Notes under the pieces: generated by a model
Databases searched by the model: none
What the model was told of the DNA's origin: nothing
Seen by the model: the letters and a program-made list of their open reading frames with translations, nothing else
Position numbers and translations under genes: made by a program
Part shown: in pieces, positions 27,501 to 61,540 of the stretch
Position numbering within the stretch: position 1 is the stretch's first letter
How the letters are laid out: the number at the start of each line of letters is the position of its first letter
Source of the DNA: Stegostoma tigrinum
Lineage: Eukaryota
Length of the DNA: 64,000 bases
Assembly (NCBI RefSeq): GCF_030684315.1
Contig: NC_081377.1
Coordinates: forward strand, 22,630,001 to 22,694,000
Direction: 5' to 3'

Positions 27501-27516
27501 CATCTTGTGACTGTGT

Positions 27517-27679
27517 AAAAACTGAAAGAACTGCAGATGCTGTAAATCAGTAACAAAAACACAGTTGCTTGAAAAGCTCAGCAGGTCAGAGAAAGGGTCA
27601 CTGGACCTGAAACATTAAATCTTTTTTCCTTCACAGATATGCCTTACCTGCTGAGCTTTTCCAGCAACTTTGTATTTGT
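27517..27679. mobile_element. Palindromic short Penelope-terminus element (related subfamily)
   Basis: AGTTGCTTGAAAAGCTCAGCAGGT ... ACCTGCTGAGCTTTTCCAGCAACT arms; GAACTGCAGATGCTG family motif; TCTTRTGACTGTGT direct repeats. Confidence 0.75.
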
Positions 27680-28910
27680 TCTTATGACTGTGTGTCTATC
27701 TTTGTTTGGCAAAACTGCTGCGAAAGACACTGTTATTTGTGGTTCTAGATAATTGCAATATATTGATGCTGCTCAAGAATGAAATGCTTTCCATTTCAGA
27801 TACAAGCTCAGAAGAGGAGTGAAGCTTTTCCTACCCAATTCCAGCAGATAACGGTTTCAGCTTGATATAAAATACCTGTATTCAAATAAATTCACTTTTC
27901 CTCAACATGGCAGTTTGCAAAAAAAAAATCTGCCAAGCAGGAGGCAAAGTGTGTTAGAAATTCCAAAGCATCTTGTTTACTGCCAAGTACCTAAGACTTT
28001 GGAGTCTTCCAATTTGTTCACAAGGATACTAGTGATTTACATATTTTCAAGATTGTATACTGCTGAAAGGTTCTCCTTGATCAAAGTTGTAAGATATATC
28101 ACACAATGGATGCAAAGTTCAATTACAGTGAACTTCCATATGCCAGAACTGGAGGATTTGATTGAATATTAAAGGAAATAACAACGTATTATTTTAAAAA
28201 AAATTAACATAAACAATCCACATATCAAAATGACGTACAAATTTTATGAAGACTTACGATTTTATTTCTCAAATTGAAGTGGTTAAATTTATGGATAACT
28301 CTCACATGACACATTCTTGTCAGAAAAACATACGCAGGATACGTTTCCCGTGTGTTAGCAGGCTTCCATTAATTTGCATTTGAGCCTTGCTATTAATACC
28401 AAGTTCCTGAAAAGGTGTCGTGGTGGTGGTGGTAAAGGGTGAGGACAGGTATAGGATGTGGAAGGCGCCACAAAAAAATTCAATAAAAGGACAACCTGCT
28501 TTTTAAAAACCGACCTTAAGAGTTGCCAGACGACGTTAGTTAACGTAGGAACACGCAGCAGTAAACTGATACACAACATGATCCCACAACCAGGAGAAGG
28601 AAGGAGCAGCTAACTAATGATGTCCGGGTCGGGAGAATTCAATGCGGTTTGAACACTGAATATTTCGCTTTCCACCGACCACCCCCCAGAAACAGCCAAA
28701 CGAGGCCTGAATTCAACAAGGCACCAGACTGTAAGCAAAAGCAAGCTCAAGACCCAAGGCAGTACACGTGATGGCAAAATCGGCGCTAGGCCAGACATTT
28801 AATGCGAGCTCTTCAATCATCAGAACAACTTTCGTTTGGAGGTGGGTACCGATCGATGAAGCGCTGTGCCATGAGCCAACATACACAACCTTCACCATGT
28901 TTTCACTCAC

Positions 28911-28995
28911 CTGCAACCCCCACCTCCCCCAAACGACAGCCGGGTTACAATGACCTCTCACCCCGACCCTCGCCACGCCCTCTCTGCGTTTGCCG
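28911..28995 (-). other. NCDN: Probable non-coding first exon of NCDN (5' end uncertain)
   Basis: Perfect donor CAG|GTGAGT at 28911/28910 on the minus strand inside the CpG island, just downstream of a CCAAT box near 29005. Confidence 0.55.
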
Positions 28996-29040
28996 CGGTC
29001 CCGACCAATACAAACACAACGCATCCCCGAGCAACTGTCG

Positions 29041-29175
29041 ATAGATAACAAGGTGAAGAGCTGGCTGAGCACGGCAGGCCAAGCAAGGTCTAGGCCCCTC
29101 TGATGCTGCTTGTGTTCATCCAGCTCTACACCTTGTTATCTCAGATTCTCCAACATCGGCAGTTCCTCTCTCCCA
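29041..29175. mobile_element. Palindromic short Penelope-terminus element in the promoter
   Basis: GATAACAAGGTGAAGAGCTGG ... CCAGCTCTACACCTTGTTATC inverted arms; flanked by AGCAACTGTCG direct repeat. Confidence 0.8.
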
Positions 29176-32159
29176 AGCAACTGTCGCTAGGCGCCTGGAG
29201 GACCAATCAGGAGCGAGGCCCCGCCTCCATCCTGTCGGAGTGTCACGTGGGTTTCCCTCCATCCTGACATTGCTGTCGGAGTTCCCAAATCGAACGCACT
29301 GCGGCGCTGGAGATTCTGATTATCCACGGCGTCTGCAACTGAAATATTGTCTCTTTGCACCTGGAAATGCAAATTCTTCGCTCCTGAAGTAGTCAAATGG
29401 TTCGTTTTGTATCAGCTGCCATAATTCCTGACATCGGGTTGGTTCGGAACCAGAGTTCTCGGTTTTTGTTTCCGCGGGACCGCTTCCCCCGGACACCTGT
29501 TTATGTGCGGACGCATCTCGTCCTCTCACGGGGTTTCTGTGTGTGAAGAAGGGATTGATCGCACGTCAGCGGCTGTTTTCCTGGCTGTCTGTTAACTGCG
29601 GGATTGTCGATTTGGGCCACTGATGGGCGGAAATGATTTATTGTTTAAAAAATTGTGATGGGGGAGTGAAAATGTCGATCAGCGGAAGTGACGAAAGGTG
29701 TGTTTGAGAAGCTCGAGTGTAGGAGACACTGTCACAGGGAACCGGGATAGAAGTAGGGGGAAGACCCGGGGAAAGAGAAAAGGAGAGCCGTGGCGGGGGA
29801 GAGAGAGAGAGAGAGGAGACCGAGACCCGGGGGTTGAGGGAGACCCTAGGGAAAAAGAAGACAGACCGGTGGAGAGCGAGAGGAGAGAGACCTGGGGGGA
29901 GAGGGAAGGAAAGAGCAGCTGGGGCAGAGGTTGGTAGTGGTGCTAGAGGGTAGATACACTTGGGGGGAGGGAGGTGGAAGGCTGGGAGACCTGGTCGAGG
30001 ATCAGAGGACACTGGAGAGGGGAGGACTGTAGTGAGCGAAAAGTCTGGGGACAGAAGTGTGCAAGAATCCCTGAACTGTGAGCTCAGGGTCGGGATCCAG
30101 GTTAGGACCACTTCCCAGGTCGTAAACCGCATAAATGTGCCGACCTGACTGGGATGGATATCGTTCTGGCAAGGCAGAAGCTGAAACAGTGTTTGTGGAG
30201 CCCGAACAGCAGGTGCCCCAACTCATACCGACGCGTCTTGTTTGTTTTAAAGATATTCTTTTCATACACATCAGAAGCACCAGGCTGAAGGTCTCTCACT
30301 TTACTGACGAATTGATAAACTCGCCCTCCTTTAGTTGGAATTGGCCATATGGTAAATGGGGATTTCTTCCGATTTCAGCTGGAAGTTGATAGCGACCAAA
30401 TAAGACTTGCAGTTGCAAAGTGTCAAGATAATTTACTGGGTTTGTTTGCGTTGTGACAATAGAATCAGATAGTTGTAACTTAAATCCTGAAATATTTGAG
30501 AAGCGTTGGGCGCTTTTAAGTTTGCCCGGTATTGTAGGGTGTATGCAATTACCAGGTGACGAAATATCTTGTATAAACTACATGCGATGACACATGGTTT
30601 TTATCTTTTGAAAATGTACCGCGTTTCATTTCCACATAAATTCCATTGATATTTGCTATGGTGAATGTTGGCCGACCCGATCTACAAGCAGTTCTCGTGT
30701 TTTTGAGTGGCGTTGTTTGTTAAACAGCCGCATCTTTTGTATGAAATAGGCAGCAGTTATGACAAAGTAATACTCTTTCTAATGGATTAGAAGATGAGGA
30801 TGAATGAATTACTGATATTCTGAAGTGACATATAAATTTGCAGCGTCTGACAGAGGCGAGATGACATGAGGCAATGTCATCATATATGTATGACAATATA
30901 AGGTTTTTAAAATTAAACCTGATTACATTGTGGTTCTTGCATAAGCGTTGTCAAGTTATTTTCAAACAGTTGATGGCCAAGATTTATTTGAAAGAGGCTT
31001 AGGTGATTTCCTCAGTTTATCTATAGTTTGAATGGATGAAAAATGTAAAGTAGCAGTTTGATGTAGATGTTTTGTATGAGGTCATGTTTAACTACTCAAT
31101 CAACAGAAAATGAGCTATCAACATGAATGTGAGTATCAATTCCTTTAGCAATTCTGCAAAGGATTACAGACGGAAGGCAAAGAGCACTTTGCGTCATAGT
31201 TAACTACTTTAAATTGTTTTGATATACAACATTTTACAATGTCTCAAAGTAGGTGATACAAACCACTTAAAATTATTGATGACATTATTATACTTTGTTG
31301 ACTTTTTGTGAAGCAAACCAGTAACAGAGGGCTTGATCAATGATGAGGTTCAGTCATGAACAGAAAGTCTTTAATAGTTATGTTTGGTAGTTAATTGGAA
31401 GTACCATGTGTGTACGCTTGGCAAGTTTTAACAGTATTGTATATAAATAAATATCGAATAAATGTTTAACTTGAATGCTAATTTGTACACTGAGTGGTTA
31501 GCATTTATTTTTCTGTTGACCTCTAATTCCATGTAAACAGCATTGGGAAATTCACTATGTCAGTGATCTAAGTGCAGTTTACTGCATTAATAAAATTTTT
31601 TAATCTTTAAATTGTAAAGATTGAAACTCTGAGCTTTTTGCATCATGTTTGTTTTCCTCTATGTGTTCATTGCTGCCGTAGGGTTGCATGTTATCCACAT
31701 AATGCACATATGAAAAAACGTATAAACCTGGCATATTAAAGTTTGAAACTTAAAATATATTGTAGATTGTCTGCAGCCCTAACTCTTTCTGATTTGGTAA
31801 CAGGTTAAGTTTCACTACTTTTCACTAAATTTCAGTGCAAGTGTAAAAGTGGCTGAAGTTTAACTCAGTTCGGCTAATTTTGAGTAGTCTGATGAAAGAG
31901 GATTTGGTATAGTACTTCCCGTGGCATTTGCAGTGTGAATTACAGTGAGGATTATAAGATTGTAGTGTTTTAAAACTGTAAGATACCCGAAAGGCATAAT
32001 ACTTTTGTAGCACAGCGCATTAACTCTTAATGCCTACAAAAATATGATCTATTTCAGCCTGTCAAACCCTCCAGTAAGATATACCAAATGAATGTTAGAT
32101 GCTTCCTTCTGAACTGCTGCTTTGTCAGAGAAATAAAAAGCAATTTTTAAAAATTATTA

Positions 32160-32490
32160 TTATAGGATGAGGGTGTCGCTGCCTAAGCCAGCACTTATTG
32201 CCACCCCTAATTACCCAGAGGACAGTTGAGAGTCGGCCACATTGCCGTGGGTCTGGAGTCACATATAGGACAGAACAGACAGTTTCCTTCCCTCAAGTAC
32301 ATTAGGTAATCAGATGGGTTTTTCTGACAATTGACAATGGAACAGCGGTCATCATTAGACTCTTCAATAGAAAAAGAAATCTAAAACTAATATGAATTCT
32401 GCCATCTGTCATGTTGGGATTCAGACTTGGGTCCCCTCGGGTCTCTGCATTAATTGCCGCACAATAACACCAGTAGGCCACCACCTCCAC
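32160..32490 (-). mobile_element. Same SINE family as 62876-63222
   Basis: Reverse-complement similarity (GTGGGTCTGGAGTCACAT, TTCTGCCATCTGTCATG). Confidence 0.8.
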
Positions 32491-33394
32491 GATATGTCAT
32501 GTTAATTACGTGTCATTTTCTCGTAATCACTTCCAGCAAAATTAAAACTAAATGGAGAGCAAGATGTTTAAGGTAGGAACTGGCTTTTTGATTGGAATCT
32601 CCTGGTGTGAAAGAAAGAGTTCTCAACATGGATTCAATGAACATCTCTTGAAATAATGAACCAAATTTGAGTACATTGAAGTATATTGGCATATATTTTA
32701 AGATTTTTTTGTTTCTCAATTCCAGTACACTATTTCCATGGTAAATTCAAAACAGTAGGTGGTTCAATTAATAATTGTATCACAAGACAGAAACATATAT
32801 GGTGCATTTAGAATTGTTGGGAGTGAACGCATTGTACTGTAGTTTTGTCATTCATCTTCAAGTACAAAACTCGTGAGTCAGACCCCTAAGGTTAAGCCTG
32901 CATCATTTGACCTTTTATAAATAAATTAACATTTTCAGTACTTAATAATTGGAAAAAATTACGTTGGCATTATTCGATGAGTCATAGAATATATCATTGG
33001 TACACTTTGTCATCATTGGTTTATTAGTTAACTAATAATGCTGAAATTACAGATGTTAAAGACTGAGAGGATGCACTGATGCTAAGATTATGCAGAAGCA
33101 CTGTTAGGTGAAGTAAAATGAGGCAAAATAGAGCTTCAGTGGTAATCATGTAATCCATTTGACGGATCTGGTCATGCATTGCTCTCCATCCTGATCTTAG
33201 CTGCAGGCAAAATACATTTACCAAAAAGATGAATAAGGCCACTTCATGAATTTCATTTGTTCATTATGTTCTGAATAATATTGTTCTGGTAACTCTGTTT
33301 CAAGAATGGAGGCATGTTGGAATTAATACATGTAGGTTAATAAACTGAGTTTGAACTGCTGGTAGTTATGTGAATAGAAGGGGGGAGAAAAAAA

Positions 33395-33730
33395 GCAAAA
33401 ATTGCACCTTTTTGCATGACAACAGAATTTCCCAAAGAGCATTTGCCATCTGTCAAATACTTTTTAAAGTACCAATCCTCATTACAATATAGGAGATATA
33501 GCAGCCAATTTGCACATACTAAGCTCCCCAACCAGCAATATCATAACTGGGAAATTTGTTTTAATGATGATGATTAAAAAAATAGGCAGAACATTTTGGA
33601 TATGTTTTCAACATTCTCTTTATGGGACAAATGCTTTCTTGGTTTATCATTTTGTCTAAAAGATGGCATCTTCACCAGTCCAGCACTCCACCCCCAGCCT
33701 TGTGACATGATTCAGCCACAGCTGACACAC
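33395..33730 (-). mobile_element. Ancient DeuSINE-like (SacSINE1-like) SINE remnant; similar copy about 44090-44440
   Basis: GCAGCCAATTTGCACATACTAAGCTCCCCAACCAGCAAT resembles the reverse complement of the Deu domain; assignment from recall. Confidence 0.5.
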
Positions 33731-34602
33731 ATTCTTAATATGTTTTAATTAACTGTGAGGCTTTCAAGTGGAGTTGTTTTTTTTATTGTCCAAGATATCA
33801 TGACTCAAACTACATCTGCAACAGTTGTTCTCTCATAATGAATAGAATATTCTCGCACTGAATGCAGCTTCTTTATTATCTATTTTTGTGACTGAAATTT
33901 ATAATATTCAAACTAAGGGTGTAGAATTTATAGTAAAAGGATTTTGTTTGCCTGGAGCTGTATTTCAATGAACTAAAGTGAGATTGTGTAGCCTGTGCAG
34001 AGGGTCCAGTTACTGCTGATGGTTGTTTTACACTGAATGGTTGTTATCAAACTGAACCTCAGGAAAGAAACTTCAATGTCCCTTACTCACCAACAGGTAG
34101 CGGAACGATGAAAGCTGTAATGTAATGGAAAAATTAGAAATCACTTTCTTTCTTTTATTTAATAATTTCTGTTGTGGAGACAATTAGGGAAAATGCAGCC
34201 ATATGATCATTCCAAAGTAATTAGAGCTGGACAGTGAACGACTTCTAATCAAAAAATGTGAATGCAAAAAAGTGTTGTTTCATGATAATCTTTACAGATT
34301 TTTTTTTGCAAATATAGAAAGGTTTCCTGAAAAAAAAGGAATTTTAAAAAGGATTGGAAGGTTTTAATTGTTTACTGTCAACTTTACTCATTCAGTGAAA
34401 TGGTGTTACTTCTTTTTGAAGGATTTTTTTGAAAAAAAAAACAAGAAGTAAAACCTCGATAGGGATTCCTCAATTTTGGGATGCCCCATAGTGCTTGAGA
34501 GCCATTAAAATGCTTGGAACTGTCATCAAAATTATAAGAAGCAGAACAACCAAGCTGGACAGAGCAAAGTTTACAAATGGCACACAGGTAAATGGCTTTT
34601 GC

Positions 34603-34747
34603 AGAGATAATGGGAACTGCAGATGCTGAAGAATCCAAGATAACAAAATGTGGGGCTGGATGAACACAGCAGGCCAAGCAGCATCTTTGGAGCACAAAAG
34701 CTGATGTTTCAGGCCTAGACCGTTCATCAGAAAAATTCTTTTTCTGA
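34603..34747 (-). mobile_element. Short Penelope-terminus element with hammerhead core and fold-back stub
   Basis: Near-identical to 14293-14420; ends CATCAGAAAAA-TTC-TTTTTCTGATG. Confidence 0.85.
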
Positions 34748-34909
34748 TGCAAGAGTTCCAACTGCCAGTCTGTTACCTTTCATTTGCACTGTAAATGTAT
34801 TCAGATTCTTTATGATCAGAGCCAATTTTAAACATTGTTCATTTGCGCAGCTGATTTCCAAGCTTTGTCAATCGTCATACATTGCAGAGACTGCACATAT
34901 GAAGTGTAG

Positions 34910-36890
34910 AGTCATTGCCATGAGGTACCGAACAGGCCCTTCAGCCCATCGAGGCTGCACTGATTCTTAAAAACAAGATCACCTGTCTTCAATAATTCCA
35001 CTTTCCCGCATTTGACCCATAGTCTTGAATGTTATGAAATTAAATGCTCATCCACGTATCTTTTTAAAGCCTGATGTTTTGTGCCTTCACTGATCTCACA
35101 TGCAGTGTATTCCAAATTGCAACCATTCACTGGGTGTAAATGTTTTCCTCAAATCCCCTCTATTCCTCATGCCCTTCACCTAAAAGTATGCCTCCTCATT
35201 GTTGACACATCAACGAAAGGGTTCAGCTGGTTTCATCCATTCTGTCCATGTCCATCACAATCTTATACATGTCATCAGGTCACATCTCAACCTTCTTTCC
35301 TTTTAAAGAAAACAACCTGAATCTATTCAGCCTCACTTCATTGCTAAACGAGCCCAACATCGGCAAAGCCCTGGTGAATCGCCTCTGCATTCTCTTTAGT
35401 GGAATCATTTTCTTTCTTGGCAGTGGTGACCGGATCTGTCCGGAGGACTGCAGCTGTATCCTAAGCCATGTTTTATTTAGCTTGATCAGTCATGGCGTAG
35501 ATTATAAGAACACAGGGTTTATATTAGAGCTAAATGTCCCACATAGCTTCTTAATCACCCTATTAATCTGCCTTGCTGCCTTCAGGGATCTGTGGATGAC
35601 CACCCTAAGACCGTCATAGTACCCTGCCGTTCATTGAATACTCTCTTGTCCTGTTACTTTCAAAGTACATCATCTCACACTTAAACTGCCATTAATCTAC
35701 CAATCTGAATAATCCATCTCTATCTTCCTGTCACCCAAGATCTCCTTCCTCAACTTGAAAGAGGGAAGAGTGGTCTTAGACCGTTATTTCAAACATTTAA
35801 AAAAAAATTATGATAGTAGAAATGCATTACTAGTTGAAGTGAATTTACAAATGAGAATAAATCTGAGAAATCAAAGAGATCTGAGATGCAAAAGGGATTT
35901 TGGTAGCCTAGTATATAAATTTCAAAGGATTATTCAAGTACAGTGAGTAATTAAGAACATTTAAGAATGTTGTGGTTTATTATGACGGTAATTGAAGAGC
36001 AAATTGGGCAGGTGATACTTCAGTTATACAGGGCTTTGATGAGAACATATCTGGAGTACAATGTACACGATTGGCCTCCTTTATTAAGGAAGAATAGAGA
36101 TATGATGGAAGCACTTCAGAGAAAAGTTCACTAAACTAATATCTAGAGTGGGTGAGTTGTCTTGAGGAAAACTTTGAAAGACTCGTGTGTGGCTGCTGGA
36201 GTAAGAGGTGATGATTGAAACAGGCAAAATCCTGAGGATATGTTGATAGGGATTAACGTGCAAAGGATGTTTCCTCTTGTGGGACAATATAGAACTAAGG
36301 GACACCGTTTTAAACGTTAGGGGTTGCCCCTTTTAAGGCAGAGATGAGGAAGCTTATTTTTGGGAGTCACAAGTCCTGGATTCATTCAGCATGGATACAG
36401 ACCCTTCAGTTCAACTTGTCCACGCTGACAAGACATGCCAATATAGCCTAATTCCATTTGCTAGCATTTGGCTGTATCCTGTTAAACTCTTCATGTTCAT
36501 ATACCCATCCAAATGCTTTTTAAACATTGTAATTGTACCCACCTCCAACATTTCCTCGGGCAGCTTCTTCCACATATATTCCCTGTGTGAAAATGTTGCC
36601 CCCCTGTCCCTTTTAAATCTTTCCCCTCTCACTTTCACCCTATGCCGTCTAGTTTCGGACTCCACCACCCTTGGAACAAGACCTTTACTATTAACCTAAC
36701 CTGTGCTCTTCATGACCTTTATAAACCTCTATAAGGTCACTTCTCAGCTTTCAATGTCCCAGGCAGTTCAGCCTGTCCTGGCAACATGCTTGTAAATCTT
36801 TTCTGCACCCTCTCAAGTTTCACAACATCCTTCCGATACAAGGACCAGAACTGCACACAGTATTCTAATAGAGGCCTGACCAATGGAGAC
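34910..36890. mobile_element. Cluster of three CR1 LINE fragments (about 34910-35750 minus, 35820-36370 plus, 36375-36890 minus)
   Basis: TRRHRVKVRGERFKRD, LPEEMLEVGTITMFKKHLDGYM and CTGGAGTAC..TGT CR1 ORF2 C-terminal motifs. Confidence 0.8.
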
Positions 36891-38199
36891 AAGCATGACT
36901 AATACTTTCTTCACCTCCCTCTCTATTTGTGACTACTTTCAAAGAACCATGTGCAGAGGACACCACTTTAAGGTGATGGCAGAATAACTAATGGAAATGT
37001 TCATGCAGTTTGCAGTTTAAAAACGGAATTTTTTGCCTAGGAATGTGGTCGAGGCAGTTTCAAACATCCCAGCTAAAGAGAAAATTTGCAGGCTTCAGAA
37101 TGAAGAGTGGAACTCGCCAAGTTAATCTTGTGTTGGACATTGGGTAAATTATTAAACATCACGAGCATTACCTTAGTAAAACTTTTGAAAATGGCCTTTT
37201 CTCCTTTCAAATATTTAACTGCTAACAGCAGAAAGGTAGAAGAAAAACCTTCCTTTAAAGCTACTGGGTATTGATGCATCACACAAAGTTCAGATACACT
37301 GTAGCCCAAGCAAGAACAATCAAAATTCAACCTACAACACCATTCCAACAAACAACAATGATACACCTGTAGGCAGTACTTTGGGAGAAGCTGAGACCTT
37401 CGAGTAAAGCTATAATGCAGAAGAGATAACTCGAGTAATTTATGCGTTTAACTATACATTTTTTTCTCAATTGCTTTGGACATTGGAAAGTCAAAAAAAA
37501 AAATTCATGTCATTTGTCGGCAACCAGTGGTAAGGTTGTGCAAGCATGGGGCTAGATTGGGCAATTTGTCAGCTGTTCCTGTGGGTGTTTTCCATTTATA
37601 AATAAAGCTATGATAAATGAGAATTAGCAGTTTTCTGATTTGGAACAGTTTTCGAGAAACCATTTTTGGTTTATCCACACTGCTTGAGTTGATTTGTTCT
37701 AATGTGCAATTATACATGGCATTTACACGAGGAAATAAGAATCTAAAAGGCTAAAGGAATCTAACATTTAATCTTGCTTTTCTCAGTGGGTAGTAGATTT
37801 CCTTCAGGTTATCCAACAGAAAGAGATGACTTTCCTCCAAGTTTAACTGTGACCCCTTGGATATAGCTGTAAACACAGTTTCTGAAGACCCAACTGATGC
37901 TTTTCTTCTGATGTGGTTCTGACATTATTTCCACCATTCTATGATGGCTTTATAATCCTACTGCACCATTGAACTAAAAGTTCTTGTGTAATATTTGTGC
38001 AATCTTTCTCGTTATGCGAATTATTTTACTTTGTAGTTCCTCAAAAATTGTATACAATCAGTTAGTCTTAATGAGATTTTTGTTGTGAAATTAAATATTG
38101 TATCACCAAGATTTGCCAAACATAGTATAAAACTATTGCTACATTCACATTTGACTTTTTTTTTCTCTACAGGTGATTTTCTTCAATAATATTGTAGCC

Positions 38200-38341
38200 A
38201 TGGATAGGAGGTTGGAAAGTTTCCTTGTTCCTGTGACGTCTTCTGTAAAAATTGGAGTTTTGCTTCAGTGGACGTGCGTTTCAAATCTCAAGTTCCTGTT
38301 GTATGGCTGCTTTTGTCTGACCACATTGAATTCACTTACTA
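38200..38341 (+). CDS. KIAA0319L: KIAA0319-like protein (AAV receptor), first coding exon (exon starts 38173)
   Basis: Long T-tract ctacag| acceptor, GCCATGG Kozak, MDRRLESFLVP...FLLYGCFCLTTLNSLT (compare human MEKRL...CFC), A|GTAAGT donor phase 1. Confidence 0.85.
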
Positions 38342-38879
38342 GTAAGTTACATCATTCAATCAAATTGTCAGATTTAATTGCAATAGGGACACATTTCTAC
38401 AGAATTTAATTCAGTCTAGTTTGTACTGCATGAATTATTACACTTGGTAGCATTCAGTTATTTCCTTGCAGCTTTTATGTTCTTCAACCTGTGGTACCTA
38501 CTTTAATTATTTATACAGCCGGTTGCAGGATATTTGAAGAAAAAAATGCTATTGTGTTTGTAAGGAAAGGCTATGGAAAACAGTTGATAATAACGCCTAG
38601 GTGTCTTCATACTGGTCTTTATATTCAGTGCATCTGCTAGTTTCGTGCATATATTCATAATGAGCTGTTGATATCTTTCAGCATTTTTAATTGCTCAGAT
38701 ATTTGTGTTTATTCCTCATGTCTCAGCATTCCTTGAATTAAGGCAGTGCATTGTTGAACTGCTTCCAGCATTCTACCACTGCTGTTATGCTGCCCCACAG
38801 CTCTGTGAGCCAGTAAAGAAACTTGTTCAATGAAAGCACATTTGTAGTATACTGCACATGAAAAATTTAAAATGATTTT

Positions 38880-39026
38880 TAAGCGGCTATTAGATAGGCA
38901 GATGGATGATAGGATAAGGTAGAGGTGGAGGTTAGACAGACCTTAGGTTAAGGGTAAAAGTTGGGCACAACATCATGGGCCGAAGGGCCTGTACTGTGCT
39001 GTACTGTTCTGTGTTCTGTGTCCTAT
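38880..39026 (+). mobile_element. CR1 3' tail
   Basis: TGGGCCGAAGGGCCTGTACTGTGCTGTACTGTTCTGTGTTCT hairpin plus terminal microrepeat. Confidence 0.7.
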
Positions 39027-45874: not shown

Positions 45875-46210
45875 GGAGGCACGGTGGCTCAGCGTTTAGC
45901 ACTGTTTCCTTACAGCGCCAGTGACCCGGGTTTGATTCCAGCCTCGGGTGACTGTGCAAACTCTGCACTGACATTCTTCCTGTGTCTGTGTGGGTTTCCT
46001 CTGGGTGCTCTGGTTTCCTCCTACATTCCAAACATGTGCCTGCTATGTGGATTGGCCTTGCTAAATTGCCCGTAGTGTTCAGGGATGTGTAGATTAGGTG
46101 GGTTATAGCGGGGTGGGTCTGGGTGGGATGCACTGAGGTTCGGTGTGAGCTTGTTGGGCTGAGGGGCCAGTTTCCATGCCGTAGGGATTCTATGATCTAT
46201 TCTATGATCC
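45875..46210 (+). mobile_element. tRNA-derived V-SINE (HE1-like)
   Basis: GGCACGGTGGCTCAGCGTTTAGC...GGTTTGATTCC, V-domain, tail ending in (ATTCTATGAT)-like repeats. Confidence 0.85.
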
Positions 46211-47717: not shown

Positions 47718-47800
47718 CAGCAAGAACTGCAGATGCTGGAGTCAGAGTTAACACGGTGTGGAGCTGGAGGAACACAGGTTAGGCAGCATCCGAGCAGTAG
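47718..47800 (-). mobile_element. Penelope-terminus fragment
   Basis: CAAGAACTGCAGATGCTGGAG...GGAGCTGGAGGAACACAG, similar to 60751-60810. Confidence 0.65.
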
Positions 47801-50800: not shown

Positions 50801-51115
50801 TAACATTCAAATTGACATTCTAATCTTTTGCAAAAAAAAAGGAAGCTGACGTATTAACTCTCAAACTCGTTGAACAGGATATTGTGTTTAATTTTGCTCA
50901 GGTAATTCATGCAGCCGGAGAGAAACTTTGGGCAGTCCTAAGCCAGTTTTTAATGGGTATCAGTGTGTCTGCGATATTGCAAAGTGGCAATTAGGTCAGA
51001 AGTTTTGGCCTGGTGCAGTATGGAAAGCTGTAGTGCTTGGAACAGACTCTGAAAATTCAGACAAATTGTGTTGTGCATGATCTTGAATTTCTGATAAGTA
51101 CAATTTAAATTGCTG

Positions 51116-51241
51116 TCTGATGGGTCTAGGTCCGAAACGTCAGCTTTTGTGTTCCTGAGATGCTGCTTGGCCTGCTGTGTTCATCCAGCCTCACATTTTA
51201 TTATCTTGGATTCTCCAGCATCTGCAGTTCCCATTATCTCT
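51116..51241 (+). mobile_element. Short Penelope-terminus element (hammerhead box damaged)
   Basis: Reverse complement of the 14293-14420 / 52729-52819 terminus; CTGATG-GGTCTAGGTCC-GAAACGTC lacks 2 nt after CTGATG. Confidence 0.85.
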
Positions 51242-51879
51242 TAAATTTGAATTTGTTGTTTTTGGTTATTATTGGTTGAGTACTTGTGGATTTAAACTTG
51301 AGATATGATGGATTGGTTTCATAGTGCAGCAGTGCTATTCTTGAGGAGAAAAATACTTCTAAATTCATGCTGAAAACCAGGTAAAGAACTTTAATTTGGG
51401 AGTGCACGATGTCCGTACTGATTGCCCGAACTCTTATGCCTTGCACGCAAATATTCTTGTCGGTAAAACACGGTTATTTTTTGTTTAAAGAGAAGGTAGG
51501 CTACTTACTTGATTTGCAAAAGGAAATTGGAAATATTATAATGATAAGTTGTGCATGTTGCTGCCAGCTGGGTTGCTGAACCGCTATGAATGTTTCACAT
51601 AAATGATCTTGCAGCCAGATAACTTGCGTCTGAATGAGGGGAATAATTTTTTAAAATTCTAGTGGACACTAGGAAAAGATAAACATTCCTTCTGTTTTTG
51701 AAGTATTCGCAGCAATGGACCATGAATTTGTCTTCCAGTATAATAAAGCTAAATGTTTTAAAGATAAAATAATGGAGCATTTAGATCCAAACTAAATAAT
51801 ATAGGATGTCCATTTTAACTAGAGTCTGCTTTTCAGTGTGTGGCACTAAATCTTGCCAGGAGTGAGGCCGTAAAAATGG

Positions 51880-52728
51880 CGTATTTGGATTTAAAGAAGG
51901 CGTTTCATACAATTCATCATGAAAGGTAGAAATAAACATCAGTCCAAATATTCTTATAAATAAAAGAAATTAATTGACCAGTAGAATCCAGAGGGTTGTA
52001 ATGTGGAGGTTTCTAATTTGCTTTGAGATAAGATTGGCAAGGGAGGAAGTGAGGGAGAAGAATGGTCACGGTCAGTTTTACGACTTCACACATGAATAAC
52101 CTGGCTCGAGCAAAATGGCTTAGTTTGCAGACGATGCCAGGCTCTCAAAGGTAATAGCCTGCAATGCTGAAGAGAATCAATTACACAGACTTCAGAACAC
52201 ACTTGGATATCGGTCAGATTGAATTGCCACCTATGAGGAGAAGTGCACAACTTTAAACGTGGAATAAAAATAAGTCATAAGTGTTTCTCAAATGGATAGA
52301 AACAATGTGTACAGTGAATGAAGGAGATCCACAAACTTTGGTAATTGAAGCTATTGCAATCTTTGTTTTGACAGTGAGTGAAGCAAATCAGATTTTGCGG
52401 TGTCTTGAAAGGATGGTATTAAGCTGAAATAGTCAGTTAATCCGTTGAGTCCAAAAATGGTTGGTGTATATATAGTTACAACATTATGCCGGGTTCTGGT
52501 CACCATTGCCTGTAGAAGGGTATTGCAATGTTGGAAGGATACAAGAGAGGATAACCAGAATAACAATGGATTAGAATGTGAGGAAAGATGATATAAATTG
52601 ACCAGAGAGTCCCTGGAAAAGGGAAGTTTAAAAGGTGGAGCAAAAGTTGTTACTATCAGGATTCTGAAGGGACTAAATAATGTAGTCTGTGGCAAACCTT
52701 GTTTAGACCTGTAAAACTAGAGGGCATG
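51880..52728 (+). mobile_element. Old CR1 LINE fragment, host of the Penelope insertion
   Basis: YLDLKKAF and FADD-like codons; ACTAGAGGGCAT (TRGH) at the insertion site. Confidence 0.6.
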
Positions 52729-53745
52729 ATAATAAAATGTGAGGCTGGATGAACACAGCAGGCCAAGCAGCATCTCAGGAGCACAAAAGCTGACGTTTCG
52801 GGCCTAGACCCTTCATCAGAGAGGGGGATGGGGGGAGGGAACTGGAATAAATAGGGAGAGAGGGGGAGGCGGACCGAAGATGGAGAGTAAAGAAGATAGG
52901 TGGAGAGGGTGTAGGTGGGGAGGTAGGGAGGGGATAGGTCAGTCCAGGGAAGACGGACAGGTCAAGGAGGTGGGATGAGGTTAGTAGGTAGCGGGGGGTG
53001 CGGCTTGGGGTGGGAGGAAGGGATGGGTGAGAGGAAGAACCGGTTAGGGAGGCAGAGACAGGTTGGACTGGTTTTGGGATGCAGTGGGTGGGGGGGAAGA
53101 GCTGGGCTGGTTGTGTGGTGCAGTGGGGGGAGGGGATGAACTGGGCTGGTTTAGGGATGCAGTAGGGGAAGGGGAGATTTTGAAACTGGTGAAGTCCACA
53201 TTGATACCATATGGCTGCAGGGTTCCCAGGCGGAATATGAGTTGCTGTTCCTGCAACCTTCGGGTGGCATCATTGTGGCAGTGCAGGAGGCCCATGATGG
53301 ACATGTCATCAAGAGAATGGGAGGGGGAGTGGAAATGGTTTGCGACTGGGAGGTGCAGTTGTTTGTTGCGAACTGAGCGGAGGTGTTCTGCAAAGCGGTC
53401 CCCAAGCCTCCGCTTGGTTTCCCCAATGTAGAGGAAGCCGCACCGGGTACAGTGGATGCAGTATACCACATTGGCAGATGTGCAGGTGAACCTCTGCTTA
53501 ATGTGGAATGTCATCTTGGGGCCTGGGATGGGGGTGAGGGAGGAGGTGTGGGGACAAGTGTAGCATTTCCTGCGGTTGCAGGGGAAGGTGCCGGGTGTGG
53601 TGGGGTTGGAGGGCAGTGTGGAGCGAACAAGGGAATCACGGAGAGAGTGGTCTCTCCGGAAAGCAGACAGGGGAGGGGATGGAAAAATGTCTTGGGTGGT
53701 GGGGTCGGATTGTAAATGGCGGAAGTGTCGGAGGATAATGCGTTG
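52729..53745 (-). mobile_element. 5'-truncated Penelope-like element (GIY-YIG part + 3' terminus) with 11-bp TSD
   Basis: Same family as 14291-15918; GFLYIGETKRRLGDRFAEH; flanked by TAGAGGGCATG at 52718-52728 and 53746-53756. Confidence 0.93.
52792..52819 (-). ncRNA. Minimal type I hammerhead ribozyme motif in Penelope terminus
   Basis: Minus strand reads CTGATGA-A-GGG-TCTAGG-CCC-GAAAC-GTC: both conserved boxes, stem II, palindromic ACGT in place of stem III, GUC cleavage triplet. Stem I is only about 2 bp. Activity untested. Confidence 0.65.
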
Positions 53746-54399
53746 TAGAGGGCATGTTCTGTGCTTGAAGAGCTAAATTAAAACTAACCTCTGAAAATGT
53801 GATTACATTGAGCTAGCAGTCAGCTATTGGCCGCCTTTTACCCAAGACAAGGGTCATCAATAAGATTTATTAGGCCATCTTTTTATTAAAAACAAATTCC
53901 CCAAAACACACTATTGAGAGTTGCAAGGCACAAATGATTAGAGACAAAAACGTCCACGTGGTCATTGAGAATCTAAAGGCGATGCAGCAGTTTTGCTTTA
54001 TTTGCTTTAAAACTGTCTTTGTGTTTTTATGACGGAACTATGGAGAAAAAGCAGAAAATGTGAAATACTCAGGAAACAGCTATGGAATTGTAGAGTTAAT
54101 GATCAGAATTTTACAGGGGCAGGGGATGGCAGACTGCTCACAGGCCCAGAAGGACACCGAACAGCAGCTAATCGAGTGAAAAGCAAGTACAGACCTGCAA
54201 TGTGTTGTGGGTGGCTGGCTTAACTGGTAAAGAATGGAACTTGTGTCACTCGGAGAAGAAGTCCTACTCTCAGATTGGCTGGAAGTCCCAGCAGAGCCAA
54301 GACCGTGGTAGTGGTGGGTGCAGCTGGACTTTCAAGAAGTAGCACTAAGAAAGCTCAATGGATCCTTGGAGTGAGCTAAGTTCAGGGCATAGAGTCTGG

Positions 54400-54770
54400 T
54401 CGGGTGAGTGTTTGAGGGGGATGGTGTCGAAGGGGCCTTTACTTTGAGCTCAAAGGAATGAAGGGACCATTGCTCTGTATTCTAACCCCTTGTCATCCCT
54501 GTCCCAGGAGTGTTTTATAGAGGCAGTGTTATGGGAACTTAACTAAAAGTAAACCGAAAGTATAGAGAGTTGGGAGAGTTTTTTTCTCTGTACTCAACCC
54601 TGTGCTGTCCTTGTCCTGGTTGGATGCCGTGTTGTGGGAACTTTACATTCAGTTCATTTTCAGTCCAAAAGAGCAGACTGAGCTTTTTTCTGCATTTAAC
54701 CCCAGACTGTCTCTGTCCCAGGAATGCTTTGTGGGGATGGTGTCCAGGGGACTTTGCATTTTCTACTTGT
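54400..54770 (+). repeat. Degenerate minisatellite-like repeat, about 70-bp core in 3-4 copies
   Basis: CTCTGTA.TCTAACCC..G...TCCCTGTCC..GGAGTG...GGGAACTT recurs near 54473, 54586 and 54688, with a partial copy near 54405. Confidence 0.6.
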
Positions 54771-55167
54771 TAAAATGAGTAGACCCCAGAGGGTTTGACT
54801 ATCTTGCAGAAAGGGGCAAGGGGGTTAGGCAGTGGGTTTCTGAGAGCAGGCAGAGAGGAAGGACGTATGCATTTCTTTGGGTGAGGGTGTTGATGCGCCT
54901 CTGCTGTGCAAAGGGCTCCTTCCCAGTCCTTCCTGCCATGCAAACTGTATTTTGTCATCAATGTCATATTACCCGGGTTAATTGAAATGGCAACAAGCTC
55001 AGTGAGCCTTTAGTTATTTCCATGCTCACCCACCTGCCATGTTATGGGATGGGCTTGGGGTAGTTAAAAGTTTGGGCTGGGCACTTGCCCCATGTGATAT
55101 TACCCCCTTCCCCTATTGTTTAAACCGTGCCCAGTAGGGACAGTAAAATCCAACTCAATATTTTAGG

Positions 55168-55270
55168 TCTGATGAAAGGTCATCAATGAGAAATGTTAAC
55201 TCTCTTTCTCTCCACATATTTGTGCATGACCTGTTTGAGCATTTCCAAAATGTTTAATCTTTCAGATTTA
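55168..55270 (+). mobile_element. Old Penelope-terminus element with decayed hammerhead
   Basis: CTGATGA-AAGGTCATCAATGA-GAAATGTTAAC followed by sequence resembling the right arm of 27517-27679. Confidence 0.55.
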
Positions 55271-56414
55271 TATTGAATGTATTGCTCAATAAAGCATCTT
55301 TAAAACCAACTTTTAAGAAACTTAAGAGTTATGACTGTTAATTCCGTTGATAAAACACTGCTTCCAACTGCTCATTTGGAATAATTTATCTCAACTAAAA
55401 TCAAAACAATAATGATCACCACCATAAAATGTGTTTTTCATGCTAACAGGGTTATGTATGACACTTGTTACCATTATGAGCAACGTGAGGAATTTTCCAG
55501 TAAAGCTTGATGATTAAACTTGTTTAATTTTACTGTGATGCAGAACAATTGCTGTTGTAGAATGAGATTTTGATTCTATCTCCGAACATTCTGTTTTATC
55601 TTTCGTTGTAAATCTCAGTGGGTGCAGTGCCTGAGGCAGATTACTCTCTGCAATGATTTTTGGAGGAAAGCAGGGTGACTGCCTAGCCCACGGTGGGCAG
55701 GGGAGGGGATTGATGAAAGTTAGCGTGGTGCCATGAGACTTCCCATTTAGTTTCCAGTGAGCTCACTTCAGGGATCCATTGAGCCGCCTTAGTGCTGCTT
55801 CTTGCAGGTCCAGCTGCAGGTCTTGGCTACTAAGGTCTTGGCTCTGCTGGGACTGCCACTGTCTCATCCAGAGCCAATCATATTATGCAGCCCCTTCACC
55901 CTGTAGCCTTTCAATTCTTCCTTTGATTCTGTAAACAAAGGCCTGAGTCTTTAATTTTACCTTTGCTATGGTTACCATTCACCACTGTCTCTTGTGTAGT
56001 CCCCTCTGACCTGTATGTAATTATTCCAAGTTAAAATATTTTTAATGCTGATCAACCATGATCAGTGCCGTATTGCCAATATTTTGAAGTCCACCTTCCC
56101 GACTTCAAAGCAAACTGGAAACTAAATGGGAAGCCTCATGGCAGCATGATAACTTCCATCACTCCCCTCCCCTGCCCACTATGTGCTAGGCAGTAACCCT
56201 GTTTCCCTCCAAAAATCATTGTGGCAGATGTGGAGAAGACATGTTTTAAAGCAACCTGAATTATTGTTCATAGTATTTACTAAAAAAAACTTGAGAATCT
56301 CTAGAAATGCATGAACTTTATATAAAATGGAACAGAAATATAACTGAGTTTACAGAAAATTGGGATATTTCACTTTTCACTAATAATGTGTTTCTCCCTG
56401 TGTTGTCTAACTAG

Positions 56415-57118
56415 GTGCAAGCATGGACAACTGCAAGACAGTAGGAAGCCATAGTGGGGTGTTTGTGCAAGTTGGACTGGAAAGCCCATTTTTGGAACAA
56501 GTGGGGAAAGCGGATTCCATTCACACTTGTAGAAATGCCTGCTGTCAGAAATGCCACTGCAATGCTGCATGGCTGTTGGAGGGGAAATGTCATCTTTTAG
56601 ACTGTAGGCTGCAAGAAAACTGTCAGCTAAACCAAACAGGCAGATCAAACTCCATTCTAATATTTATTGATAGACTTTCCCCTTGTGGGGATATGCACAG
56701 TCTTATGCACAGAATTTTAAAAGAAGATTTTCATTACAAAATTGAGGCTAGGACTTCAGATCAGACCACAATTGATAGAACATCAACTAAAGGCACGTTG
56801 TCTGGATATTCATTGGTAGCAAAGCAAAATAAAATATTGTCCAGAATAAGACGTGAGGTATCTAAACCATTTAGTAATCCTGCAAAGTTGCTGCAAAGTA
56901 ATGGTGGTACTCCCTATGATGGCAACAAGGATTTAAATCCATCCGGGCACACAGAACAGAAAAACAAGAAGCATTTAAAACAGCGTTCATACCAAGATCT
57001 GCAGACCCCTCAAAACAGCCTTAAGGAAAATGATACTGTGAATGATCAGTTTCCGAAATATTCAGCACCTACTTCAAATGGGAGAAACTTAAAGGAGATA
57101 CAGACTCTACCTCCTGAG
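56415..57118 (+). CDS. KIAA0319L: KIAA0319L second coding exon, MANEC/MANSC cysteine-rich domain plus linker
   Basis: ctag| acceptor phase 1. CRNACCQKCHCNAAWLLEGKCHLLDC...C...SNSILIFI fits the MANEC pattern; GAG|GTAACA donor phase 0. Confidence 0.92.
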
Positions 57119-57309
57119 GTAACACTTCATTTTCTTTTTTCTTTACAAACATTTCTTGCTGAACTGATACTTAAATAAATGTGATACCAGCAGAAATCTT
57201 TTCCTCCCAATCTTGATAAGTCAATGTATGCTTGATTCCAATGTGTGGTTTACTTTGGAAAGCTGTTCGTGTTCAGCAAGTTGGTGGCACTCCATCTTGA
57301 TGCATCCGT

Positions 57310-58335
57310 GAATGAAACAAAAAATGGAAGTAGACCATTCAGCCCATGAGACTGCTCCAGCCATTCAACATGATCATATCTGTTGTTCTATCTCAATACC
57401 ATATGGCCACACTCTCCCTATATTCCTAGCAGCTGTACCTCTAGAACTCTTTTTTTTCTTCAAAGTTTTCAGTGATTTGACCTCCACAGCCTTGTATGGT
57501 AGTGAATTCCGTCAGTCTTCACTCAGGTAGTGGTGAAGTTTATATTCATCCCAGTCCGAAATGGCCCACCTCTTATCCTGAGATCATAACTCCTTGTTCT
57601 GGGTGTCCTGGCCAGGAGAAACATCACCCCTGTATCTAGTCTGCGTCACCCTTTCAGAATATGTTGAATATATTGCCCTTATCTATGCACCTGGTTACTT
57701 CTTTGAAAAATTCCATCAAGTTAGTCGGACACAACCTTCCCTTAACAGACCCATGCTAACTTCTCTAATCTCTGCCTGTCAGTGCAGTTAATTTGGTCCG
57801 TTAGAGTTGCTTCCAATAGTTTTCTCACCACTGAGATGAAACTGAGTGACTTGTAGTTTTGTGATTTAACTCTCGTCCCCTTCTTGAAAATGGTACAGCA
57901 TTGGCTGTCATCCAGTCCTCTGTCACCACTCCTGTGGCCAGGGAGGAATTGAAAATGATTACGAGCACCTTTGCTATTTCCTCCTTGCCTCACTCAATAA
58001 CTTGGGATGCATTTCATCTGGCCTGGAAACTTAACAACTTCGAAGTTTGCTAGACTACTTGAAACCTCCCCTCTGTCATGCTGACTCCCTTCAGCGAATG
58101 CAACAAACCTGTGATCCCAGGAATCAGTCTGTTGAACCTTTGCTGCATTCCCTCTATGGAAACTATCTCTTCTCTTGGGTAAAGAGGCCACATCTGCACA
58201 CACTGCTCCAGGTATAGTCTCACCAAGGCCCAGTATCATTGCAGTAAAACTTGCCGCAGCGCCCAATCTCTCCTACAATGAAGGCCAATATCCAGATTGC
58301 CGCCTTAATTGCTTGCTGCACCTGCATATGCCTTA
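57310..58335 (-). mobile_element. CR1 LINE fragments
   Basis: IFKKG...NYKSLSFISVVRKLLE CR1 RT motif; CR1 tail near 57320. Confidence 0.75.
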
Positions 58336-59167
58336 GAGAATCATTGATTTTTGTTTTAAACATAGCATATTCTCACTGAACACATTGGAATTAATGGAGC
58401 TTCGTTCATTCGCCATAATGGGGTAGCTCACTGTCAGTCGCCTTGGACCTATATATTTCTTTAGAACCAGTGTCGTGTTGGAAGAGGTTTTGGAGGCTGC
58501 TTTAATGAGTAGTAGTAATAATTTGGTATAATTATCAAAGTGTACAATACCATTTCCCATTAATCTTCCCATTAATCTGAACTTCTGATCAAAAATCAGA
58601 GTCATGATCTGTGCATTTCTCTTGCATTTTGGAAAAATGCAAAACCTCCAAGAAGTGCCGTATCTTCAGTTGGTTAAATTATTTACTGCTGTGTTGAAGT
58701 TACCATTGTAAATGCTAGAAACTGAGGCAAGTGTAATTATCATCTGGTCTTGGTGTTCAGTACCAAATTTTGAATGTATGCCGTGACATGGTCTTCAACC
58801 ACCCGGTCAAGTTAAACATTCTTTCATACCACGCCAATATATTTGAAGCTAATAAAGTAAAGTTTTCAGAGGACATTTTAAAAATCTCTAATAGATTTTT
58901 TTTCTCCCTGATTGAGTACCAACTATGTGCCTAGAGTAGAAGCGTTGAGACAATCCTGGATGGTTGACAATCTTATAATGAATATGTGGCCCATACACAC
59001 TGGCATTACTGCTGTACTGGCCACTTAATCTTGTCACTTAGATATAAGATGGAGAGAGGAGGTGAGTTGTAGTTAGACTATTCCGCTTTTTATCACTTTT
59101 TAAGCCCTTTTTTAAACTTCAGTTTCAAGCATGTAAGGTGACACAGCAAATTAAAATACACAAGAAT

Positions 59168-59260
59168 CTGAAGAAGGGTCCCAACCTGAAACGTCAAGCT
59201 TTCCTGCTCTTCTGATGCTGCTTGGCCTGCTGTGTTCATCCAGCTTCACACCGTGTTATC
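59168..59260 (+). mobile_element. Short Penelope-terminus element with hammerhead core
   Basis: CTGAAGA-AGGGTCCCAACCT-GAAACGTC followed by family sequence GATGCTGCTTGGCCTGCTGTGTTCATCCAGC; AAGAAT on both flanks. Confidence 0.8.
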
Positions 59261-60314
59261 TAAGAATTTTTTTTTTGGCACGTTCTCCAAGTGCAGTTAT
59301 TCTTCAAATTTAGTGGCAACATATGCTACATTCTGAATAAATTTTCAATGTTTTTAGCATCAAGTGGTGTGGCTACACTAAGCATACTTTAGTGTTGGAC
59401 TTTTTCAAAAGCTATTAAACCTCCTCATAAAGGAAGATGAAGTTCCACTCGTGTTATTCTCTTATTTTGTTGCTTAATGCTTTGTGGTTGGAGTATTATT
59501 CAGGCTTTTTTTTCTAACTTGCAAAATAAATCCTTTTGAAGTTACAAGGTAAATTGGTAAATTTGTTTCTTAAGCTATCCTGCATAAAATGTGCTGAATA
59601 TAACATTGAATTCATGGAGAAATTATTTGAAATAACTGCATAGTGTGGTACTTCCATTAGCAGGGCTTGGATAGGGATGATGTAGTCAGTGGACTAAGTA
59701 ATACCTAGCTCATCCGTATGAGACTGTAATCCACCCTGGTTGTTTCAGTCATCTTTAAAGCCATAAAGGAATGCTTCATGAACAACAGCAAAGTACCAAG
59801 ATGGAATTATAGCCTTGAAGGGAACAAGTAATGTAGGGGTTAGGAGGGGTTCTCGGACAGTTTTTGGTTTGTAAGGCACCGCCACTGACTAGCAATGCAG
59901 TGGCTATATGTGGCTAGCACTGTGGATATTGTGCTGTAATGTGTTCCAGGAATTACATGAATTCTGCCTGGAAACCATCAGACAATAACTGTCCTTTGTG
60001 TTGTTGTGACCTGGGGCCTGGGGTGGGTAAGGTACATCAGGGCCTAATAACCTCGGGCTCTGTGGGCTTACTGTGCTTGGGTAAGGGATCAAGCAGAGAC
60101 CTGTACCAAGATTAGCATGAGGGCTTATGATTTCTGACCTTGCCCCTGGTGGTTACAATATAGTGAGTTGCAAATGATTCATAGTGCTGAGCAGAGGATT
60201 CATTTTTGTGAACTAGTTATTGACACTTTATCTTAAATTACATAAAGGTTTGCTGTTTGGAGTTATTGAGTATTAGTGATAAAATAAAACTACTGAATGG
60301 AAACTGAAATAATC

Positions 60315-61540
60315 TGTTATGAGATTGTATACAGTATTCATGACTTGGAGGGCAGGAAGTAAGAATTTGTTGGTTAAAAATGATAGTGGGGAAAAATGTG
60401 TATCGTCCCTTTAAAAGGTGATGTTTTCTCTGTGATCAGGAATTTTTAACAAGTATGTCTGTGAGCAGCAGCTGGAGGGTGCCATTACAGAAAGTACCCA
60501 AAATTGAAACATTTATATAAAAGGTCAAGCACCGTCTTTTTTGGCCAGGACAACTGTTCTAAATGTTAACCAATCGATTTGAACCAAGCTCTCTGCTACA
60601 AAAAACCAATTGAATTTAAAGCTGATGGTTTTGGCAGCCTGCAACAAATTGTATTGGAAGAAATGGATGTGTCATCAGTGGGGGAGGGAATCATATATAA
60701 AGATGAGGGCATTTGGAAAATCAGGGAGAGCTAGCTGTCGTCTGAGGGGACAAGAACTGCAGATGCTAGAGTCCAAGAAACACAGTTTGGAGCTGGAGGA
60801 ACACAGCGGGCCAGGCAGCATCAGAGGAGCAAGAAAACTGACGTTTCAGGTCGGGGCCCTTCTTCAGAAAATGTTCTTCTGAAGCTGCTGGGACTGCTGT
60901 GTTCCACCAGCTCCAAACTATGTTGCCATCTGAGGAGAGAGCTTGCCCACCATTTGAGAAATAAGCCCGAGCGCGCTCAGGAAATCGGTAAGCTCTTTAA
61001 AAATGTACCGTCTTAATAAAAAGTACCTTGGTACTTTTCGCTTAGGGTCCTCATAGAAGAAATTACGGAGAAGACATCCCTGACAGCAAAATCAGCAGAG
61101 GAACGTGTTTGTGGAGTAATAGAAAAGCCAGAGCGTTCCTGAAGACCATCTGTGTGGACTTGGAGAGATTACATTTTAATTTATTGTAGTCTTATTAATT
61201 GGGTTTATTTAAGTGGGACTTGTGTTTATTTGAACAATATCGCAGTAGAATTTAGTTCAGTTAGTGGGTGGTTAATAGCCTAAGGGGGAATTGTTCGGTT
61301 TGTTAGTAATTCTGTTAATTTGTTAATTGTTAGAGTTAAATAAATAAATTGTTCCTTGTTATGTATAAAGTGAATCAGGGATTTTCTTTCTTTGGACTAT
61401 TCTTTTAACAGATTACGAGGGGAAAGGCAAGCTTTTCGGGGGTAATTCTTTGAAGGTAACCCCTAGCTCCATCATAGCAGATATGGTGTTGTTTTTTGGT
61501 TTAATTATCGGGAGGGTTTGGCCATTCCCCCTCCTTAACA
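60315..61540 (+). mobile_element. Possible solo LTR
   Basis: TGTTA...TAACA termini, CCAAT motifs near 60570 and 60606, TATATAA near 60694, AATAAA near 61339. No clear TSD and left boundary uncertain. Confidence 0.35.
60751..60921. mobile_element. Palindromic short Penelope-terminus element
   Basis: AGTTTGGAGCTGGAGGAACACAGC ... GCTGTGTTCCACCAGCTCCAAACT inverted arms; hammerhead core on minus strand 60840-60867; degenerate 17-bp direct repeats on the flanks. Confidence 0.8.

Follow-up and report, generated by a model that had tools for sequence, protein, structure and literature searches.

The 64,000-nucleotide stretch of Stegostoma tigrinum DNA considered here (assembly GCF_030684315.1, contig NC_081377.1, positions 22,630,001 to 22,694,000 of the forward strand), referred to below as the window, contains short hairpins associated with a hammerhead ribozyme motif. 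Judging from their sequence, these hairpins are almost certainly paired 5′-truncated ends of a Penelope-like retrotransposon (Penelope-like element, PLE), joined head-to-head. The two arms tend to meet at a hot spot just ahead of the hammerhead, likely the capped start of the RNA of the element. The pairs are likely to arise when both nicks of the target prime reverse transcriptase (RT), at a tailed and a tail-less site, and the two cDNA ends are joined. Positions in the element are numbered from the C of the CUGAUGA box (+1), the predicted hammerhead cut falling after +28.

The window itself holds a young copy of the parent element in which an endonuclease (EN) open reading frame (ORF) lies directly upstream of the same terminus as that of the hairpin arms. 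A first look for the protein of this copy across the 3.2-Gb genome gave 271,907 candidates. An 878-aa frame combines RT (YIDD; RVT_1 E=4e-5) with a following GIY-YIG domain (E=0.003) and has the same 3′ end as the window arms; both Pfam scores fall under the curated cut-offs, which counts against this assignment. At locus L229 the hammerhead and the tail are followed by an ATG frame leading into the RT region, and the terminus can therefore be considered the pseudo-long terminal repeat (pLTR) of the element; repetition of the 3′ terminal sequence before the ORF was found at L229 and L231. The retroelement origin proposed in a first-pass annotation of this DNA is upheld, since the arms match the termini of a PLE encoding RT and GIY-YIG. 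The RT–EN linker, CNRRKCYTC, fits the CX2-5CxxC pattern, which cannot separate Neptune from Nematis, and the predicted protein carries a linker of Neptune/Nematis type. The Cys linker of this pattern defines these two clades (PMC8557442; this and the other publications are cited from the parts of their text that were available).

The termini are referred to as families A, B, and C. Family A covers 8.3% of the bases in an unselected genome sample of 143 stretches of 10 kb, taken at round coordinates on 24 large contigs (1.43 Mb), and its terminus also occurs in the window as solo copies. Families B and C were placed in the PLEs, putatively, by their hammerhead, their tail-like ends, and the presence of head-to-head pairs only (24 head-to-head and no tail-to-tail pairs in family B). 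Target site duplications (TSDs) of at least 8 bp were found in 2 of 24 family-B cases, the copies being old and the reference lacking the full tail; this result is not used as evidence. The copies in the window are as follows.

27503..27516, no strand: left TSD of a family-B fold-back; right copy at 27680-27693, 13/14 identical.
27517..27586, minus strand: tailed arm, a family-B hammerhead-bearing PLE-type end with its 5′ start at ~+64.
27582..27679, plus strand: tail-less family-B arm with stem II and the GAAA box, without the CUGA box.
29030..29040, no strand: left TSD; right copy at 29176-29186, 11/11 identical.
29043..29086, minus strand: tail-less arm of an older family-A copy, ~+93 to +50.
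29087..29175, plus strand: short stem-II fragment, then a tailed arm from ~+40 to +128, without the hammerhead core.
34603..34735, minus strand: tailed family-A arm, -4 to +128, with a minimal hammerhead and CUGAUGA from 34730.
34739..34749, plus strand: 11-nt inverted stub, -4 to +6.
60734..60750, no strand: left TSD; right copy at 60922-60938, 13/17 identical.
60751..60872, minus strand: tailed arm, from an older family-A copy, that includes a hammerhead, CUGAAGA from 60867.
60873..60921, plus strand: tail-less arm from near -3, with an internal deletion.
52725..53772, minus strand: young 5′-truncated copy of the parent PLE with a tail-less end, hammerhead at 52819.
14293..15916, minus strand: older 1.6-kb tailed family-A copy, carrying a short piece in inverted orientation at the 5′ end (15863-15916).

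Inverted arms were found at 27552-27680, 29043-29141, and 60779-60924, and the junctions quoted in the first-pass annotation were located at 34725-34749 and 60861-60883. The TSD-flanked palindromes cited there were recovered at 27517, 29041, and 60751. At 34603, neither a second 3′ end nor an adjacent TSD was found. The placement of the axis at the ribozyme holds for the 34603 and 60751 copies, whereas the arms meet at ~+50/+40, without a CUGA box, in the 29041 copy, and at ~+64/~+4 in the family-B copy at 27517. The young copy at 52725..53772, 99% identical to an RT-bearing genomic copy, comprises the end of the EN ORF (53044-53772; CxxxxCxxC linker, GIY-YIG) followed by the 3′ region.

The same geometry prevails across the genome. 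The sample contains 314 terminal arms, 136 of which make 68 head-to-head pairs, with no tail-to-tail pair; 18 head-to-head neighbours with a single terminal arm were excluded from the pair set. Read in the direction of hammerhead and ORF, the arms are thus joined 5′ end to 5′ end, and the earlier description of the elements as tail-to-tail has to be reversed. Extrapolation gives roughly 150,000 family-A pairs genome-wide. The 3′ ends cluster at +90-95 and +128, ~36 nt apart, and 55 of the 68 pairs combine a short with a tailed end, the remainder being one tailed pair, one short pair, and 11 pairs of unresolved type. TSDs of at least 8 bp flank 45 of 66 scorable pairs (median 14 bp, range 8-18 bp), as against 9 of 2000 mismatched flank pairs used as a control, which bears out the view that each hairpin was inserted as one unit. 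Solo copies with a TSD end either at the tail (16/33) or at the short site (13/24), and both sites therefore behave as priming sites. The hexamer TTATCT precedes both 3′ end sites (+88-93 and +121-126; L169, 6071-6111) and is perhaps a priming signal.

Much longer copies have the same form. When 20 long loci were chosen from the protein match list, 18 of them as opposite-strand pairs, 19 proved to be fold-backs of 2-5 kb with ORF-bearing arms that are 97.5-100% identical, and TSDs of 11-16 bp were present in 17 of the 18 scored. Since the head-to-head form continues to this size, the short hairpins represent the lower end of a single series extending from ~150 bp to 5 kb. The fold-backs span several subfamily haplotypes, one of which is common to the long ORF-bearing copies. 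The loci L010-L022 and L027-L030 represent one PLE locus inside a block repeated, with near-identical flanks, on many contigs and C13; the near-identical repeated-block loci among L010-L030 were excluded from the counts.

Near-symmetric centres (at most 20 nt), sought genome-wide with exact patterns, occur at 6,191 loci for the +1 anchor, compared with 303 for +29 and 31 for -39; as had been anticipated, the turn points pile up strongly just upstream of the hammerhead core. In the profile of arm 5′ ends, for which an identity of at least 92% was required (117 of 314 arms retained), the start falls between -6 and +5 in 25 of the 64 arms of young fold-backs, further upstream in 11, and further downstream in 28. 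The listed junctions mostly end at about -3 in the CTCT subfamily and -4 in the TTTT subfamily, where a C-run has its last C, and copy 5′ ends number 2,471 at -3 versus 192 at the +40 control. The hot spot lies ~30 nt downstream of a TATTTAT box and ~30 nt from the predicted cut; it is 4 nt upstream of CUGAUGA, and 16 nt upstream in family C. This last family is represented by 233 loci, and the 50 listed comprise 30 exact -15/-15 joins, 14 joins of -15 with extra bases, and 6 shorter ones, so that the recurrence of identical junctions, which the first-pass annotation had asked about, is seen in family C; in family A the junctions are diverse. The hot spot is thus genuine, but its distance from the ribozyme varies with the family (-3, -4, or -15), and it does not coincide with the cut site. 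Its sequence, a C followed by pyrimidines, is one which we take to resemble the TCT/5′-terminal oligopyrimidine (5′-TOP) initiator consensus.

The base preceding the copy ends supports this distinction. In hand counts of the first 100 matches listed, made without flanks and mixing solo with asymmetric fold-back copies, G precedes -3 in 80 of 100 (upstream bases templated by the element excluded) versus 32 of 100 at the +40 control (Fisher P=8e-12; background 28%), and 16 of 100 at +29. G was also found in 14 of 24 listed rows with unrelated-looking flanks, and in 15 of the 25 rows left from a further 100-match listing after 75 rows starting with AA, in which symmetric fold-backs confound the count, had been dropped. 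An untemplated-looking G present at the hot spot and lacking at the cut site points to a capped transcription start as the likely nature of the hot spot. In full-length L1 and SVA copies an untemplated 5′ G has been read as the cap reverse-transcribed (PMC4859970), the Penelope transcription start lies in the pLTR (PMC8557442), and TCT/5′-TOP initiators are documented (PMC6954239). The commonest junctions, AGAG/CTCT and AAG/CTT, could result from annealing of two GC-ended cDNAs, and a blunt join yields an identical sequence. A 3′ splice site at -3 was considered and rejected, no AG being present before -3 and no upstream exon at the junctions; in Drosophila virilis an intron ends at helix I (PMC4209133).

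In the mechanism proposed, each nick of the cut target would prime RT, one at the tailed site (+128) and the other at the tail-less site (+92), a recognition sequence presumably lying near both transcript ends. Priming on the 5′ copy would give a run-off cDNA of 95-130 nt ending at the capped start just upstream of the hammerhead; the cap would template an extra C, and two such ends might then anneal by their terminal GC or undergo end-joining. The fold-back would likely form anew at each insertion, in most cases drawing on a single source RNA or locus, and the closeness of the ribozyme to the axis would reflect its place at the very start of the RNA rather than cutting at that point. Priming from both nicks, taken by itself, is probable. 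The chances are about even for the wider proposition that integration of PLEs is by its nature two-ended: a protein dimer would use both nicks as primers on a single capped RNA, at two sites separated by 36 nt, and the retrovirus-like strong-stop cDNAs would anneal by the cap-templated C.

Several observations weigh against this account. Within a locus, the two arms mostly agree in haplotype (diagnostic comparisons are discordant in 17 of 222 cases, as against 42% between loci), and 18 long copies have 16 private variants common to both arms beside 28 confined to one; symmetry to within 25 nt is seen in 7 of the 19 long copies. These features would also fit snap-back synthesis or gene conversion. 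An apparent free polarity of the arms could arise from subsequent deletion on one side. The position of the start site has been deduced from DNA alone, and the G counts have the limits given with them. A stricter four-letter pattern at +29 gave 440 ends, ~770 when scaled, i.e. ~4x the +40 control.

The main rival to two-nick priming is snap-back priming, suggested in the first-pass annotation: the cDNA primed at +128 would fold at its 3′ end and copy itself, and an endonuclease would resolve the product at +92, or, in a variant proposed earlier, self-priming would take place on an antisense template (PMC3846280). The haplotypes and private variants common to both arms and the near symmetry of the 7 long copies are in its favour, as are many junctions with 1-5 nt overlaps and the attribution of the tail to endonuclease resolution (PMC8557442). 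A single snap-back fits poorly, however, because the tail-less arm often reaches further 5′ than the tailed one. When pairs of less than 88% identity were left out (35 of 55 retained), the short arm was the longer in 14, the tailed arm in 9, and neither in 12; for the 19 long copies the respective figures are 11, 5, and 3. A tail-first snap-back predicts such free polarity only with later deletion of the centre, and a short-first one cannot produce the tail. Also against snap-back are the solo tail-less copies with their own TSD, the locus L201, whose arms disagree at 4 of the 5 sites that distinguish subfamilies and thus come from two subfamilies, and the start of RT at both sites on both strands in vitro (PMC11167929). 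Snap-back priming is thus unlikely, although the single haplotype of most arms and the near-symmetric long copies speak for that part of the earlier proposal. The associated idea that one arm is longer through loss of the centre applies in part, since the inequality reflects mostly the PLE tail (outer ends at ~+92 and ~+128) and separate 5′ truncation, and not only deletion.

It is rather improbable that the -3 peak reflects pausing of RT, either on reaching the first C-run or on meeting the edge of helix I, and not an RNA end. The peak does coincide with the last C of the C-run (-3, or -4 in the TTTT subfamily), and in family B with the start of the 4-bp helix I. A longer C-run at -15 to -10 has no peak, however, the hazard per nucleotide being 0.003 from -30 to -7 and 0.037 from -6 to +5, and in family C the peak lies 7 nt upstream of the predicted helix I; moreover, pausing leaves the 80% of G unexplained.

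The first-pass annotation suggested that the ribozyme cut sets the RNA end, and hence the axis. This is very unlikely, although it may hold for a minority class. The pile-up beside the hammerhead agrees with it, and so does the smaller excess of ends at +29, which includes short tandem arrays starting there. On the other hand, the main peak lies ~30 nt upstream of the predicted cut, with a family-specific offset and without a UH site, the cap-type G is absent at the cut, near-symmetric axes are 20 times less frequent around the cut, and an exact +29/+29 join occurs once among 50 listed. The AGCT at +29 is itself a microhomology, and two sample loci have an identical AGC junction; ~30 of 100 listed +29 rows open with an A-run, possibly the partner arm of a fold-back. 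Cleavage proved dispensable in vitro, and in Anolis none of the reads started at the cut (PMC11167929). The tandem arrays in the +29 listing have units of 61-62 and 106-107 nt; those starting at the predicted cut (C4:123608257-123608464, C2:105869430-105869665, C1:144587918-144588045, and C4:48537197-48537279) could record repeated copying of cleaved RNA. A minor class formed through ribozyme cutting is possible.

A self-propagating non-autonomous palindromic family copied as a unit, in the manner of MITEs (miniature inverted-repeat transposable elements), finds some support in the recurrent family-C junctions, which a fixed RNA start leads one to expect anyway, and is hardly tenable given the diverse family-A junctions, the several subfamily haplotypes including one in common with the long ORF-bearing copies, the variable TSD length, and the continuous size series, in which fold-backs whose arms bear ORFs attain 5 kb.

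The hammerhead itself was predicted by motif scans as CUGANGA, one unpaired base, a helix II closed by G-C, GAAA, a palindromic CG, and UH, minimal features described for PLE hammerheads (PMC4209133). The sequence of helix II varies between families A, B, and C with pairing kept. Only 2 bp of helix I are evident in family A, and 4 in family B, compared with 4-5 bp in the minimal type I. Folding of monomers did not recover the full hammerhead, the z-scores of families A and B being not significant, and Rfam gave no hammerhead match up to E=1, one weak snoRNA match, and sub-threshold microRNA (miRNA)-family matches on three window hairpins. The snoRNA match is to SNORD36 at 7890-7965 on the plus strand (31.9 bits versus the Rfam gathering value of 30, but E=0.38). 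A family-C-like hammerhead fold-back at 5433-5562, with sub-threshold miRNA-family matches, has its axis inside helix II, and the CUGA box is absent from both arms; a degenerate hammerhead motif of family-B type lies at 55169-55200 on the plus strand.

Other repeats were noted as well. In the window, inverted 113-nt arms at 55651-55763 and 56109-56221, which are 88% complementary and separated by 345 nt, did not match PLE termini and possibly belong to an element of DNA-transposon type; a related piece lies at 54280-54377. Elsewhere in the genome, head-to-tail arrays of pLTR units of 300-440 nt, each with a hammerhead, lie beside an inverted copy at L101 (6765-8434) and L121 (4982-6183) and are retrozyme-like. 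At L089 (5119-5547), the 5′ end of a copy holds ~10 tandem 39-nt units, each repeating the stretch that lies immediately upstream of the hammerhead.

An inverted pLTR with a one-sided tail is a published hallmark of PLEs, and inverted 5′-truncated copies in head-to-head arrangement with one-sided tails and TSDs have been described for them (PMC3846280, PMC8557442, PMC8969392); the structure itself is thus known. How PLEs come to have inverted ends and tails is treated in the literature as an unsettled question (PMC3846280, PMC8557442, PMC11167929). No capped-start hot spot or two-nick priming was found reported for PLE palindromes in the literature searched, the supplements and key subscription papers lying outside its coverage. 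The present genome offers thousands of young events with base-level junctions. Under the mechanism proposed, RNA starts with a cap are expected at -3 and -15, opposite nicks should serve as primers at +92 and +128, and the main class should not depend on ribozyme cutting. If integration is indeed two-ended, inverted pLTRs and tails would be explained by one mechanism, and the ~150,000 palindromes would constitute a fossil map of PLE transcription starts, these being pyrimidine-type initiators directly ahead of a hammerhead able to remove the cap. It is also worth mentioning that PLE stubs are liable to be mis-annotated as MITEs or miRNA hairpins.

MITEs are short, non-coding elements of high copy number with inverted ends and a TSD. 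The present elements lack the equal inverted termini and the fixed TSD of that class, their outer ends differing by ~36 nt and their TSDs varying in length, and their arms, unlike those of MITEs, are retroelement termini. Animal non-LTR retrozymes are likewise non-coding, derived from the PLE pLTR, and equipped with a type I hammerhead (bioRxiv 10.64898/2026.07.22.740005), but they consist of head-to-tail tandem units, each with a hammerhead, whereas the elements cited here are inverted pairs.

The EN+ PLEs Pen2a, Pen2, and Pen3a of Adineta are closer: they have an inverted 5′-truncated copy at the 5′ end in head-to-head orientation, a palindrome at the junction, a hammerhead in the pLTR, and a tail of 30-40 bp at one end only, with TSDs reported as 8-10 bp (PMC3846280, PMC8557442). 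In contrast to them, the form described here is extremely abundant and mostly ORF-less, and the accounts of the Adineta PLEs, in the parts available, include neither an axis hot spot at a capped start nor a near-obligate pairing of tailed with tail-less ends. In Poseidon_Ac of Anolis, RT starts at two internal sites on either side of the tail, ~120 nt into the RNA and behind the hammerhead; both strands are cut and extended, and a dimer is predicted, while the available text offers no model of inverted insertions (PMC11167929). It belongs to the Poseidon clade, whereas the present element has a Cys linker of Neptune/Nematis type.

In LINE-1 twin priming the second primer lands upstream on the RNA, so that non-duplicated sequence is inverted. 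Here both primers would act at fixed sites 36 nt apart, and the same sequence is therefore duplicated as a palindrome, unlike in L1. What the two processes would share is the priming of RT by the second nick and the joining of the products (PMC4859970, PMC11702581).

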